From Reyranella sp. (GTDB taxonomy: Bacteria > Pseudomonadota > Alphaproteobacteria > Reyranellales > Reyranellaceae): DNA of 64,000 nucleotides. Positions 3,392 to 17,506 of the stretch are shown here, piece by piece (position 1 is the first letter of the stretch; each line of letters starts with the position of its first letter). Location of the stretch: contig NZ_OZ245767.1 in NCBI RefSeq assembly GCF_965227665.1, forward strand, positions 1,955,638 to 2,019,637, written 5' to 3'. The notes under the pieces are model-generated. The model saw nothing but the letters and a program-made list of their open reading frames with translations, was not told the origin of the DNA and did no database searches. Both the position numbers and the translations under genes were made by a program.

Positions 3392-4702
3392 TCAGAATTC
3401 CATCAGATTGTCGCGGAACAGTTTGTGCGCATAGGCCTTGCGCGTAAGGCCTCGACGCTGCAACTCGGGCACGAGGCCGTCGCAGATTTCCATGATGTAG
3501 CGTCGGTCGAAGTGGGCGTTGAACAGCAGGAAGCCGTCGCCGCCCACCTCCTGCATGATCTCCTGCATCAGGCCGGCAACGTGATCGGGCGTGCCCACCA
3601 GGTCGATGCCCTGCCGGCTGTTGAGCCCGCTCGCCAGCGAGCGCGGCGTCTTGCCGATCCACTTGGCGAGCGAGGACTGGTGCCCGTTGGTCCGCAGGTG
3701 CTCCGGCAGCGGCTCGTCGGGATCGAACTGCGCGAAGTCGATGTTGGTGAGGCGCGACATGCCCGAGAGCTGCAGGTCGAGATGCTTGCCGAAATCCTCC
3801 TGCTCGAGCCGCCGGCGATCGCGCGCGGCTTCCATCGTCGTGTCGACGATCGGATAGGCAAGGAACAGCACCTTGATGTCGTCCGGATTGCGCCCCCAGC
3901 CCGCGGCCTGGCGGCGGATGTCCTCTCGGAAGCTCTTCATGCCTTCGACGGAGACGGCGTTGGTGATGATCGTGTCGGCCCACCGGGACGCGAAGGCCTG
4001 GCCACGAGGCGAGCCGCCGGCCTGGCAGATCGGCACCCTTCCCTGGGGCGAACGCGGCGCGTTGATCGGTCCGCGCACCTTGAAATACTTGCCCTCATGG
4101 TTGATCGGACGGACCTTCCTGCCGTCGGCAAACATCGGAATGGTACGATCGAGCACGACCGCATCCTCGTCCCACGCCTCCCACAGGCGCGTGACCACGT
4201 CGGCGAATTCGTCGGCGACGTCGTATCGCTCGTCGTGCGGCCGCTGGCCGGCATTACCGTAGTTTTCGGCGGCGCCGTCATTGCTGCCGGTGACGCAGTT
4301 CCAGCCGATCCGGCCCTCGGTGACGTGATCCAGCGAGTTGACGAGGCGGGCCAGCAGGTAGGGTGGATACTCCGAAGTCGAGAGCGTCGGCACGAGGCCG
4401 AGATGCTTGGTCGCCATCGCCAGCCAGGGGACCAGCACGGCGGGATCAAGCTTGGGCGAGCTGGCGGCGTACTTGAGATAGGTGTCGTGGCTGCCCTGGT
4501 AGGTGTAGGGCACCATCGAGGAGTCCTCGATGATCATGTAGTCGAAGCAGCCGCGCTCCAGTCCCTTCGCCAGGTCGACGAAGATGTCAGGCATCATCCA
4601 GCGATGCTTGTCGTATTCGGTGCCGGGCCACATCGAGCGCCACGCCTTCGGGCCATAGCCCTGCGACAGGAACCAGGCGAGATGGAAATGATCCTTTGCC
4701 AT
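3392..4702 (-). CDS. LLM-class FMN-dependent monooxygenase, NtaA/SnaA/DszA family (copy 1)
   Basis: 436 aa. N-terminus FHLAWFL..., then CFDYMIIEDSS, GRIGWNCVTGSND and KYFKVRGPINAPRSPQGRVPICQAGGS, typical of nitrilotriacetate monooxygenase component A-like enzymes. Confidence 0.85.
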   Translation of the reverse strand: MAKDHFHLAWFLSQGYGPKAWRSMWPGTEYDKHRWMMPDIFVDLAKGLERGCFDYMIIEDSSMVPYTYQGSHDTYLKYAASSPKLDPAVLVPWLAMATKHLGLVPTLSTSEYPPYLLARLVNSLDHVTEGRIGWNCVTGSNDGAAENYGNAGQRPHDERYDVADEFADVVTRLWEAWDEDAVVLDRTIPMFADGRKVRPINHEGKYFKVRGPINAPRSPQGRVPICQAGGSPRGQAFASRWADTIITNAVSVEGMKSFREDIRRQAAGWGRNPDDIKVLFLAYPIVDTTMEAARDRRRLEQEDFGKHLDLQLSGMSRLTNIDFAQFDPDEPLPEHLRTNGHQSSLAKWIGKTPRSLASGLNSRQGIDLVGTPDHVAGLMQEIMQEVGGDGFLLFNAHFDRRYIMEICDGLVPELQRRGLTRKAYAHKLFRDNLMEF

Positions 4703-4704
4703 GT

Positions 4705-15235: not shown

Positions 15236-16206
15236 GCACGCTGCTCGAAGTCGAGGATCTGGAAGTCCATTTCGGCCGGCCGGACGCGCCGGGCACGGTG
15301 AAGGCCGTCGACGGCGTCTCGTTCAAGGTCGAGAAAGGCCGCACGCTGGGACTCGTGGGCGAGTCGGGCTGCGGCAAGTCGACCACCGGCTATGCGATCC
15401 TGCAGCTCGTACGCGCGACGTCGGGCCGGGTGCTGTTCGACGGCACGGATCTTCGCCAGCTGGGCCGGCGCGACCTGCGCCGCATGCGGCGCAAGCTGCA
15501 GATCATCTTTCAGGACGCACACGCCTCGCTCAACCCGCGCATGCCGATCGGCGATCTCGTGGGCGAGGCGCTCGACATCCACGGCCTGTTCCGCGGTGGC
15601 GCACGCGCCGGCCGCATTCGCGAGCTGCTCGACATGGTGGGCCTCTCGGGCTCCCTGTTCGAACGTTATCCGCACGAGCTGAGCGGCGGCCAGGCACAGC
15701 GGGTCGCGATCTGCCGCGCCCTCGCCGTCGAGCCGGACCTGATCATCTGCGACGAGCCGGTATCGGCGCTCGACGTGTCGATCCAGGCGCAGATCGTGAA
15801 CCTGCTGCAGGACCTGCAGGAGCGCCTCGGCCTCACCTACATCTTCATCTCTCACGACCTCAGCGTCGTGCGGCACATCAGCGACCAGGTGGCCGTAATG
15901 TATCTCGGCAAGATCGTCGAGATGGCGGGCAAGGAGGAGATCTACACCGCGTCCGCCCATCCCTACACCAAGTCGCTGATGTCGGCGGTGCCGGTGCCCG
16001 ATCCCGACATCGAAACGCAGCGCAAGCGCATCATCCTGAAGGGCGACCTGCCCAATCCGGCCAACCCGCCGTCAGGCTGCCGCTTCCGCACGCGCTGCCC
16101 GATCGCCATCGCAGAATGTGCCGCCGTCGACCCGCCGCAGTATCCGCTGGGCGTCGGTCACTGGGCCAAATGCATCCGTCTCAATGGAGTACACCCGCAT
16201 GCCTAA
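15232..16206 (+). CDS. ABC transporter ATP-binding protein (DppF/OppF type)
   Basis: Walker A GESGCGKST, signature LSGGQAQR, Walker B LIICDEPVSALD. The ATG at 15232 overlaps the previous stop as ATGA. Confidence 0.9.
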   Translation: MSTLLEVEDLEVHFGRPDAPGTVKAVDGVSFKVEKGRTLGLVGESGCGKSTTGYAILQLVRATSGRVLFDGTDLRQLGRRDLRRMRRKLQIIFQDAHASLNPRMPIGDLVGEALDIHGLFRGGARAGRIRELLDMVGLSGSLFERYPHELSGGQAQRVAICRALAVEPDLIICDEPVSALDVSIQAQIVNLLQDLQERLGLTYIFISHDLSVVRHISDQVAVMYLGKIVEMAGKEEIYTASAHPYTKSLMSAVPVPDPDIETQRKRIILKGDLPNPANPPSGCRFRTRCPIAIAECAAVDPPQYPLGVGHWAKCIRLNGVHPHA

Positions 16207-17506
16207 GCCGTTTCATCTCGCCTGGTTCCTTGGCCAGAGCTTCGCCTCCAAGAACTGGCGCTCGATGTGGGCCGGCAGCGCGTCCGACGTCCAGCGGTGG
16301 ATGATGCCCGACCTCTTCATCGACCTCGCCAAGGGGATGGAGCGCGGTTGCTTCGACTACATGATCATCGAGGACTCCTCGAACGTGCCCTATACCTACA
16401 AGGGCAACCACGATACCTACCTGCAATACGCGCAGGGCACGCCCAAGCTCGACCCGCCGGTCCTCGTGCCATACCTGGCACAGCACACCACGCATCTCGG
16501 CCTCGTCCCGACGCTCTCGGTTTCGGAGTACCCGCCCTATCTCGCGGCGCGCCTCATCAATTCGCTCGACCATGTCACCGAGGGCCGTATCGGCTGGAAT
16601 TGCGTCACCGGGAGCAACGACGGCACCGCGCAGAACTACGGCCACGAAAAGCACCGGCCGCATGACGAGCGCTACGAGGTCGCCGACGAGTTCGCCGACG
16701 TCGTCACCAGGCTCTGGGAAGCCTGGGATGAGGATGCGGTCGTGCTCGATCGCGACACCCCGATGTTCGCCGACGGCAAGAAGGTCCGGCCGATCAATCA
16801 CGAGGGCAAGTATTTCAAGGTGCGCGGCCCGATCAACGCGCCGCGCTCGCCTCAGGGACGGGTGCCGATCTGCCAGGCGGGGGGCTCGGCGGCCGGCAAG
16901 ATGTTCGCGTCGAAGTGGGCCGACACCATCATCACCGAAGGCTCCAACGTCGCGAAGATGAAAGCCTATCGCCAGGAGGTGCGCAGCCATGCCGCCTCGA
17001 TCGGCCGCAATCCGGACGATATCAAGGTGCTATTCCTGTGCTCTCCGATCGTCGACACGACGATGGAAGCGGCGCGCGAGCGGCGCCGGCTGCAGCAGGA
17101 GGATTCGTTGAAGTACGTCGACATGCAGCTGGCCGGGATGTCGCGACTGACCGGCATCGACTTTTCCAAGTTCGATCTCGACGAGAACCTGCCGCTCACG
17201 CTGACGACCAACGGCCACCAGTCCTCGCTCGCCCGCTGGCTCGGCAAGCCCCTGCGCGAGATCGTGCGCGGTTACGCCGCCAAGGGCAGCCTCGATTACA
17301 CCGGCACGCCCGAGCATGTGGCGGGCGTGATGCGCGAGGTCATGGAAGAAGTGGGCGGCGACGGCTTCCTGATCTCCGATACGCCCATCGACCGCCGCGG
17401 CGTGATGGAGGTCTGCGACGGGCTGGTGCCGGAGCTGCAACGCCAGGGCCTGACCCGCAAGGCCTATGCCCACAAGCATCTGCGCGACAACCTGTTGGAA
17501 TTCTAG
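16199..17506 (+). CDS. LLM-class FMN-dependent monooxygenase, NtaA/SnaA/DszA family (copy 2)
   Basis: Aligns end to end with the protein encoded at 3392..4702, with long identical runs such as RLWEAWDEDAVVLDR and KVRPINHEGKYFKVRGPINAPRSPQGRVPICQAGGS. Start taken at MPKPFHLAWFL (16199); 16184 is also possible. Confidence 0.85.
   Translation: MPKPFHLAWFLGQSFASKNWRSMWAGSASDVQRWMMPDLFIDLAKGMERGCFDYMIIEDSSNVPYTYKGNHDTYLQYAQGTPKLDPPVLVPYLAQHTTHLGLVPTLSVSEYPPYLAARLINSLDHVTEGRIGWNCVTGSNDGTAQNYGHEKHRPHDERYEVADEFADVVTRLWEAWDEDAVVLDRDTPMFADGKKVRPINHEGKYFKVRGPINAPRSPQGRVPICQAGGSAAGKMFASKWADTIITEGSNVAKMKAYRQEVRSHAASIGRNPDDIKVLFLCSPIVDTTMEAARERRRLQQEDSLKYVDMQLAGMSRLTGIDFSKFDLDENLPLTLTTNGHQSSLARWLGKPLREIVRGYAAKGSLDYTGTPEHVAGVMREVMEEVGGDGFLISDTPIDRRGVMEVCDGLVPELQRQGLTRKAYAHKHLRDNLLEF

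Follow-up and report, generated by a model that had tools for sequence, protein, structure and literature searches.

DUF1028 and DUF4392 are two widespread orphan protein families, on which a literature search returned only structural and mammalian papers and no published role in bacteria, as the first-pass annotation of the DNA described here had stated. We have followed up a 64,000-nucleotide stretch of DNA from the soil bacterium Reyranella sp. (contig NZ_OZ245767.1), hereafter the window, in which a 14.1-kb block (positions 3392–17506) carries four DUF1028 and two DUF4392 genes together with a LysR-type regulator, a Dpp-type ATP-binding cassette (ABC) importer and two luciferase-like monooxygenases (LLM1 and LLM2). 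No published pathway with this gene set was found in the literature searched. A DUF1028 crystal structure dates from 2006. In a 2022 review, the uncharacterized DUF1028 protein SPO2555 (PDB 2IMH; SCOPe d.153.1.7) forms the seventh SCOPe subfamily of the N-terminal nucleophile (Ntn) hydrolases, with a Thr nucleophile, a proteasome-like fold and no peer-reviewed functional data. For DUF4392, the structure of TON_0340 revealed a dimer with a small, highly conserved active-site cavity, in which six acidic ligands bind two Mn2+ ions, and the only enzymology on a stand-alone member is a weak Mn-dependent phosphatase activity. The mammalian D-glutamate cyclase (EC 4.2.1.48, DGLUCY), from which the Pfam name of DUF4392 derives, is a DUF1445–DUF4392 fusion whose catalytic domain has not been mapped.

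The closest described operons share part of the content of the block. In E. coli, the genes of isoaspartyl peptidase (iaaA), a cytoplasmic hydrolase of the Thr-Ntn type, and of a Dpp-family importer (gsiABCD) share a transcript; IaaA is an autoprocessed, single-gene member of the Asparaginase_2 family and not a DUF1028 protein, and the operon has no DUF4392, LLM or LysR gene. Its binding protein YliB/GsiB is the third-best solved relative of the substrate-binding protein (SBP) in the window. The Rut pyrimidine pathway and the B. subtilis yxe and ytmI operons combine a luciferase-like monooxygenase with an amidohydrolase (plus RidA in Rut) and a transporter, a logic similar to that of the window, namely the degradation of an amide- or thioether-containing nitrogen or sulfur compound, and ytmI is under a LysR-type regulator. 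The amidohydrolase families of these systems differ from those of the window, and the match of the window LLMs to RutA is weak (54–58 bits versus a cut-off of 498). Ethylenediaminetetraacetate (EDTA) catabolism provides the experimental precedent for an NtaA-family monooxygenase and a NikA/DppA/OppA-type importer in one operon (PMC7312458): emoA-emoB-idaA-eppABCD of Chelativorans sp. BNC1, the EDTA/nitrilotriacetate (NTA) operon, places these two components side by side, as does the window, and deals with a small non-peptide nitrogen compound, as the window may do. It contains no Ntn hydrolase or DUF4392 protein, however, and carries its own flavin reductase and the IdaA oxidase, and DszA and DmoA are nearer relatives of the window LLMs than EmoA is (E 9e-74 versus 2e-42).

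A conserved Reyranellaceae module

A search anchored on DUF4392 in one genome per GTDB species yielded 79 loci (designated here by L numbers), which were scanned with profiles derived from the window; the DUF1028 side was sampled in 44 loci from metagenomes, each 8 kb or longer. The grouping is not due to chance, since more than 15 independent contigs carry the same genes, and every Reyranellales contig of sufficient length has the full set of LysR, DUF4392, Dpp-type ABC importer and DUF1028. A LysR gene, DUF4392 genes, a Dpp-type importer and a DUF1028 tetrad stand together in the window and in L001, L007, L009, L032, L041, L086, L087, L088, L103, L105, L142, L144 and L160. The block is a real conserved module of the Reyranellaceae, made up of LysR and four DUF1028 genes, optionally joined by an NtaA-type monooxygenase, and of two to four DUF4392 genes with a Dpp-type importer; many Reyranellaceae carry three or four DUF4392 genes. 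The four DUF1028 genes of L001 and L103 lie at the 3' end of the DUF4392–Dpp operon, on the same strand and closely spaced, while elsewhere the two sets form divergent operons. This survival of the DUF1028–DUF4392–Dpp linkage through rearrangement argues for a shared function. Further afield, the linkage is sporadic: DUF4392, DUF1028 and a Dpp-type importer are combined in metagenome-assembled genomes (MAGs) of Anaerolineae (L017) and Firmicutes (L033), and partial sets of LysR, two or three DUF4392 genes, a Dpp importer and at most one DUF1028 gene are present in the Hyphomicrobiales-like loci L002, L027, L028 and L045.

A 131-bp spacer separates the two operons of the window. It contains the dyad GATGCCGCATCGGCATC at 8580–8596 (GATGCCG-N3-CGGCATC), of the T-N11-A form with T at 8582 and A at 8594, which is conserved in 14 of 14 orthologous LysR/DUF4392 spacers, even where the LysR proteins are only 47–56% identical. 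Judged by this conservation, the dyad is likely to be the recognition site of LysR. A second conserved block, CAACGC..AAAT.G..CTTGT.GGATCAC, lies downstream of the dyad. The spacer has no match to the sigma-70 consensus, and neither sigma-70 promoters nor intrinsic terminators exceeded the expectation from shuffled sequence; a riboswitch or another RNA element was rejected, as Rfam detected only the tRNA. The LysR protein does not reach any NCBIfam equivalog. It scores 143–158 bits against the GltC, CynR and PcaQ types, GltC being the best at 158 versus 350, and 97 and 81 bits against the CysB family, all below the cut-offs; a sulfur-scavenging regulon is weakly disfavored by this ranking. That the block forms one functional unit under a dedicated LysR, as the first-pass annotation had proposed, is supported by the linkage that persists when gene order is shuffled and by the operator dyad kept in the 14 intergenic regions.

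Enzymes and importer

Genes were called between 3392 and 17506 by combining an open reading frame (ORF) listing, filtering on GC content at third codon positions (GC3) and inspection of start sites, and families were assigned with Pfam and NCBIfam profiles at their curated cut-offs, which all the assigned locus proteins exceed by large margins, in line with the initial assignments. The four DUF1028 proteins, p1 to p4, score 165–187 bits against PF06267 (cut-off 26.2) and are 46–56% identical to one another (50–56% for p4 versus the other paralogs). In other Reyranellaceae loci, each of them has its one-to-one ortholog in the corresponding place, with 65–95% identity (p4 66–95%, p3 65–95%, p2 73–95%). 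To judge from these positional orthologs and from the conserved DUF4392 orthogroups, the multi-copy enzyme content to which the first-pass annotation had drawn attention is real and ancient. All four proteins start with MT(F/Y), so that the putative Thr nucleophile, T2, invariant across diverse family members, would be exposed after removal of the Met. They also keep the other family-wide invariants D76, R82, Q83, D88, N118, R143, S163, R179, D181 and H183 (SPO2555 numbering), which hold equally against SPO2555 and distant DUF1028 members, and no degenerate subunit is apparent from the alignment. The AlphaFold2 model of p1 (mean predicted local distance difference test, pLDDT, 88.7) superimposes onto SPO2555 in Foldseek with an E-value of 3e-15, a template-modelling (TM) score of 0.73–0.79 and a root-mean-square deviation of 2.1–2.2 Å. 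The next folds are proteasome subunits and HslV (probability at least 0.95, TM 0.38–0.57), followed more weakly by glycosylasparaginase, while no DUF1028 protein of the locus matches the Pfam Proteasome family at E ≤ 1e-3. The N-terminal Thr and the fold are thus shared with SPO2555, whereas most DUF1028 members are singletons and the window carries a coupled tetrad of diverged paralogs within a transporter and enzyme island.

In three Reyranellaceae loci, L086 (14195–20717), L087 (12849–20720) and L142, a second module directly adjoins the first. It consists of two more-divergent DUF1028 paralogs with their own Dpp-type importer; in L087, a further LLM and a GntR/UTRA regulator also belong to it. 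In the first of these two DUF1028 proteins, a propeptide of some 10 residues may precede the Thr, although the start site of the protein is uncertain.

The DUF4392 proteins fall into four orthogroups, A, X, B and D, of which A, X and B keep this order across families. The window carries A and B only, which are 36% identical and score far above the PF14336 (GLUCM-like_C) cut-off of 27.9 bits (Table 1); the identity of orthogroup A across loci is 59–99%. The six metal ligands of TON_0340, E59, D61, E115, D157, E161 and D246, are present in both proteins; their equivalents in DUF4392-B are E79, D81, E169, D214, E218 and D313, invariant in an alignment that includes DUF4392-A. The AlphaFold2 model of DUF4392-B (pLDDT 93.6) matches TON_0340 with a TMt of 0.88–0.91, and Foldseek gave no meaningful match beyond it (next TM ~0.2). 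With the same fold and ligands, the window proteins are nonetheless about 70 residues longer than TON_0340, and the module-type loci differ from it in carrying two to four diverged orthogroups each, one of them with a CxCPC insert. This insert (GKDCGCPCHGG, residues ~238–246 of DUF4392-B) is restricted to orthogroup B, where it is kept from Alphaproteobacteria to Firmicutes. Orthogroups A and X and TON_0340 lack this insert, which may form an additional metal or redox site. No Pfam match to DUF1445 was found in any of the 14 locus proteins, and the DUF4392 proteins of the window are single-domain, unlike the two-domain D-glutamate cyclase. The ancestral start of DUF4392-A, ATGCTCGAC, reads ATTCTCGAC in the window (ATT at 8675), so that the protein begins either at the next ATG, three codons downstream at 8684, with 336 rather than 339 residues, or at the rare ATT.

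The nearest orthologs of DUF4392-B outside the module are 50–60% identical to it and have as neighbors an M24 creatinase/prolidase-like peptidase, an M19 dipeptidase, HyuA/HyuB, an amidase, RidA and importers. Across the 79 loci, DUF4392 is adjoined by M24 in 13 and by TctC in nine. In Humitalea, it stands with HyuA/HyuB (hydantoinase/oxoprolinase family), a tripartite ATP-independent periplasmic (TRAP) transporter, an M19 dipeptidase and M24, and L002 additionally holds RidA, an amidase and M24. The recurring context of DUF4392-B is an importer with enzymes for amide or lactam bonds. Firmicutes from gut and bioreactor samples have a conserved operon around the DUF4392-B ortholog (8794–18584 in L004, L005 and L006; 6878–13192 in L090), with a YheO-like regulator, RidA, a TAXI-TRAP transporter and M24, followed in one lineage by a Na+-pumping oxaloacetate decarboxylase, which hints at a fermentable substrate yielding an imine and oxaloacetate.

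The importer is a complete system of the Dpp/Opp type (PepT family), with a family-5 SBP, DppB- and DppC-type permeases and two oligo_HPY ATPases. A twin-arginine-like leader, MTRRGFGAGALGAGLILGTGRAPALAQG, can be read in the SBP gene from position 10829, with ALAQG as the putative cleavage site, and the enzymes of the locus carry no leader, which would place their chemistry in the cytoplasm. Among the equivalogs tested (DppA, OppA, GsiB, NikA, CntA and SapA), the SBP reaches none, its matches of 68–153 bits, CntA among them, lying far under cut-offs of 393–1005 (NikA-type 153 versus 600, GsiB 143 versus 594, DppA 119 versus 1005). Its best PDB matches are the uncharacterized SBP 5u4o, then AapF, YliB/GsiB and AgaA, with DppA also present, all at similar, modest scores. 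The label "peptide" is therefore generic, and a reading of the substrate from SBP similarity was rejected. Moreover, DUF4392 orthologs elsewhere pair with PotD-type ABC, TRAP, TAXI or TctC transporters; since the transporter class is interchangeable between lineages, "Dpp-type" should not be read as "peptide". The first-pass label of a peptide-type importer describes the family and does not by itself specify the substrate.

LLM1 and LLM2 belong to the NtaA/DmoA family (TIGR03860 cut-off 279.7; 399 bits for LLM1, which also scores 141 bits against Bac_luciferase). Their nearest solved structures are DszA (LLM2, E 9e-74), DmoA, YtnJ and NTA monooxygenase. While DUF1028, DUF4392 and the Dpp-type importer co-occur as a conserved module, the LLMs are its variable component and not the fixed part that had initially been supposed: the number is zero in L001, one in L086 and L088, two (in tandem) in L009 and three in L094 and L113, and in L087 no LLM follows the tetrad, the sole copy being at the edge of the neighboring second module. 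Orthologs of about 75% identity also occur in unrelated contexts, for which reason the LLM was rejected as a specific marker of the module. In L091, a 719-residue fusion of an IclR-type helix-turn-helix domain and a luciferase-like monooxygenase (10055–12214) adjoins four DUF4392 genes.

Cassette boundaries and genomic setting

The block comprises 14 genes, six on the minus and eight on the plus strand (Table 1); the 15 genes first announced were a miscount, the list given there also totaling 14. The length of the divergent spacer and the location of the locus, between bioYB and tRNA-Leu(CAA), agree with the initial description, as do the minus-strand junctions, of which the first four are ATGA overlaps and the last, TGAACATG, is a 2-nucleotide gap. 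On the plus strand, each ATPase gene is joined to its neighbor by an ATGA overlap, and the start of LLM2 overlaps the stop of the upstream ATPase gene by 8 nucleotides.

Table 1. Genes and other features of the block and of its flanks, in window coordinates
Feature	Position	Strand	Remarks
BioY	1559-2158		left flank
BioB-like radical-SAM ORF	ends 3168		left flank
LLM1, NtaA/DmoA-family monooxygenase dependent on reduced flavin mononucleotide (FMNH2), 436 aa	3392-4702	minus	last gene of LysR-DUF1028 operon
DUF1028 p4, 236 aa	4705-5415	minus	PF06267 173 bits
DUF1028 p3, 235 aa	5412-6119	minus	PF06267 165 bits; ATGA overlap with p4
DUF1028 p2, 239 aa	6116-6835	minus	PF06267 168 bits; ATGA overlap
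DUF1028 p1, 238 aa	6832-7548	minus	PF06267 187 bits; PDB 2IMH E 1.6e-21
LysR-type regulator, 335 aa	7545-8552	minus	HTH_1 and LysR_substrate; first gene of minus-strand operon
Divergent control region, 131 bp	8553-8683		between lysR and DUF4392-A
DUF4392-A, 336 aa	8684-9694	plus	PF14336 194 bits
DUF4392-B, 342 aa	9730-10758	plus	PF14336 206 bits; TON_0340 (PDB) E 8e-28
Family-5 (NikA/DppA/OppA-type) periplasmic SBP	10781-12358	plus	SBP_bac_5 281 bits
DppB-like permease	12401-13351	plus	BPD_transp_1 with BPD_transp_1_N or OppC_N
DppC-like permease	13353-14252	plus	BPD_transp_1 with BPD_transp_1_N or OppC_N
ABC ATPase	14249-15235	plus	ABC_tran and oligo_HPY
ABC ATPase	15232-16206	plus	ABC_tran and oligo_HPY
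LLM2, NtaA/DmoA-family monooxygenase, 435 aa	16199-17506	plus	TIGR03860 396 bits
tRNA-Leu(CAA)	17765-17849	minus	right flank

The closest DUF4392 loci come from MAGs of Reyranella and other Reyranellaceae, with 85–97% protein identity. The two closest cassettes, L041 and L088, show 90% nucleotide homology to the window from 3394 to 17504, or to the end of the contig, with the limits set by the stop codon of LLM1 on the left and that of LLM2 on the right. LLM1 and LLM2 form an inverted pair (74% protein and 78–79% DNA identity) that bounds the cassette, and the flanks of the related cassettes, which hold ordinary metabolic genes, have no match anywhere in the window. Because the homology stops at the LLM stop codons and the related flanks are not found in the window, the 14.1-kb unit is a discrete cassette that occupies different genomic sites in related genomes. 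A plasmid origin was rejected: when the whole locus was compared with PLSDB by megablast, generic ABC ATPase genes gave the only matches, and the rest of the window is chromosomal. So was an integrative island targeted to the tRNA, as the Pfam scans made detected no integrase or transposase family, no second copy of the tRNA 3' end and no tRNA-derived repeat were found within the window, the GC content is uniform and the flanks in relatives are ordinary.

The remainder of the window is an ordinary housekeeping chromosome, with purD, xseA, leuA, ubiA/ubiD, tldD/pmbA and a GCS2 ligase. Two genes of PmbA/TldD-family metallopeptidases (26692–28146 and 51329–52978) lie about 23 kb apart. A tandem pair of TctC-family receptors adjoins a family III CoA-transferase on the minus strand (45191–48533), and in other genomes distant DUF4392 genes repeatedly have TctC and CoA-transferase III as neighbors. 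A run of ten G is present at 17646–17655, within the 258 bp that separate LLM2 from tRNA-Leu. Six ORFs with gene-like GC3 match no Pfam family at E ≤ 1e-4 or 1e-5 (26–769, 29228–30004, 34687–35439, 38654–39376, 40953–41531 and 44338–45042).

Proposed function and alternatives

We propose, with a confidence slightly better than even, that the block is an island, inducible by its substrate, for taking up and degrading a small organic compound that contains nitrogen and, most likely, amide or lactam bonds. From the gene content and its linkage, the catalytic residues, the folds and the operator motif, we infer a catabolic direction, a chemistry and a class of substrate, as follows. LysR would bind the spacer dyad and, with an inducer, activate the divergent DUF4392–ABC operon; the SBP, exported by the twin-arginine translocation (Tat) pathway, and the DppBCDF-like transporter would carry the compound into the cytoplasm. 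There, the four DUF1028 proteins would act as N-terminal-Thr amidohydrolases and cleave its amide bond or bonds; they would be made in fixed stoichiometry by translational coupling and probably act as a hetero-oligomer. DUF4392-A and DUF4392-B, predicted to be Mn/Mg-dependent dimetal enzymes and probably a heterodimer, would convert a small acidic product by hydrolysis or by ring opening or closing, while the two NtaA-type FMNH2-dependent monooxygenases would carry out an oxidative C–N (or C–S) cleavage of the substrate or of a side product, using a flavin reductase encoded elsewhere. Hetero-oligomers would fit best because the gene order is fixed, translation is coupled and the orthogroups are conserved. 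A regulator with an importer, hydrolases and an oxygenase is a familiar architecture of catabolic islands; the novelty here lies in the enzymes present and in the conserved sets of four and two paralogs, which suggest hetero-oligomeric enzymes, unusual for small-molecule amidohydrolases.

Several observations weigh against this proposal. The measured activities of DUF4392 proteins, D-glutamate cyclase in the mammalian two-domain fusion and weak phosphatase, do not directly fit a role in amide degradation. In the clade of the window, lysR overlaps the first DUF1028 gene (ATGA; the gap is about 55 nucleotides in L086 and L087), so that expression of the tetrad may be tied to the autoregulation of LysR and not to induction. 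No flavin reductase, by Flavin_Reduct or other Pfam families, was detected in the locus or elsewhere in the 64-kb window, in scans that covered all but a few small ORFs. About 30 of the 44 metagenomic DUF1028 loci are singletons without any module partner, with TctC receptors and, in four loci, gamma-glutamyltranspeptidase among their neighbors; six carry the Reyranella-type DUF1028–DUF4392 module, and a few have a single DUF1028 gene beside a Dpp-type importer. As most sampled DUF1028 loci are singletons, the DUF1028–DUF4392 link, although real, belongs to a specialized clade and not to the families as a whole. Finally, the sub-modules also occur apart, so that the two halves may serve different substrates: L094 and L113 have the tetrad, LLM and a Dpp-type importer without DUF4392, and L091, without DUF1028, has LysR and four DUF4392 genes among which a PotD-type ABC transporter and the IclR–LLM fusion are interspersed.

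Taken further, this separation would mean two side-by-side pathways, the DUF1028 tetrad with its LLM and the DUF4392 proteins with the ABC importer, which share a neighborhood and perhaps a regulator. Besides the loci just cited, DUF4392 sets without DUF1028 are present in L028, L045, L089 and L090, and the second DUF1028 pair adjoining the module in L086, L087 and L142, with its own Dpp importer, GntR regulator and LLM, fits such a division. We nevertheless consider it unlikely, given that in L001 and L103 the tetrad forms the 3' end of the DUF4392–Dpp operon on the same strand, that the window cassette has a single importer and that the linkage is found in two other phyla (L017 and L033). 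The resemblance of the p1 model to 20S proteasome subunits and HslV, its nearest folds after SPO2555, and the four distinct conserved subunits, which recall heteromeric proteasome rings, might instead suggest a self-compartmentalizing protease that degrades proteins or long peptides and has nothing to do with small-molecule catabolism. This we find very hard to credit: the TM scores reach only 0.38–0.57 and the Pfam Proteasome match is missing, the locus has no AAA+ unfoldase, the DUF1028 genes are embedded in importer and enzyme operons, and the catalytic residues, which many proteasome subunits lack, are intact in all four paralogs.

Other alternatives concern the substrate. The first-pass annotation had suggested D-Glu or 5-oxoproline-like moieties, an idea that rests mainly on the Pfam name taken from the mammalian fusion enzyme and that was neither supported nor excluded by our analysis. 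In its developed form, a D-Glu-, gamma-glutamyl- or 5-oxoproline-containing peptide, such as a peptidoglycan fragment or a glutathione-like compound, would be attacked by gamma-glutamyltranspeptidase-like DUF1028 proteins that free Glu, and DUF4392 would interconvert D-Glu and 5-oxo-D-proline. DUF4392 is indeed the C-terminal domain of the mammalian cyclase, the SBP scores against the glutathione-binding GsiB/YliB about as well as against any characterized SBP, gamma-glutamyltranspeptidase adjoins singleton DUF1028 genes in the four metagenomic loci mentioned, and a DUF4392-B ortholog lies beside HyuA/HyuB in Humitalea. Against these points, the cyclase activity comes from a two-domain protein and is not mapped to DUF4392, with no DUF1445 match in the locus; the GsiB and DppA equivalog scores are far under their cut-offs; the type of transporter differs between lineages; and the monooxygenases are left without a role, which makes this scheme quite unlikely in our view. 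The monooxygenases would find one in the catabolism of an aminopolycarboxylate, opine or metallophore, where a NikA/EppA-like SBP would import an N-carboxyalkyl amino-acid compound, the NtaA-type enzymes would oxidatively remove its carboxymethyl or carboxyalkyl arms, and DUF1028 and DUF4392 would process amide or lactam forms. EDTA/NTA catabolism joins an NtaA-family monooxygenase and a cluster-C (NikA/DppA/OppA) importer in one operon (PMC7312458), the best NCBIfam match of the SBP is of the nickel/NikA type with CntA (staphylopine) also appearing, AgaA and AccA, opine-binding by depositor name, are among its PDB matches, and LLM genes recur with both DUF families. Yet the SBP matches are generic, the PDB matches at E ≤ 1e-20 do not include EppA, the locus has neither an EmoB-like reductase nor an IdaA-like oxidase, and the LLM is absent from some complete modules (L001), so that we hold this route to be improbable.

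Under the proposed uptake and catabolism island, the cassette and its relatives place DUF1028 and DUF4392 under one regulator with one dedicated SBP, which makes the question of the substrate experimentally approachable. The finding is not surprising in itself and not a new kind of system, and it would reduce to another peptide-utilization operon if the substrate belonged to the ordinary dipeptide class; its value is as an entry point for de-orphaning two widespread families. A more specific version, which we regard as possible though doubtful, is that the four DUF1028 paralogs form a heteromeric, proteasome-related Thr-Ntn hydrolase acting on an imported small molecule and that, with a heterodimeric DUF4392 enzyme and an NtaA-type monooxygenase, it makes up a catabolic pathway not yet described, whose substrate would be a natural compound of soil, for instance a lactam, an isopeptide or a metabolite of the aminopolycarboxylate type. 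If true, this pathway would give both orphan families their first physiological function.

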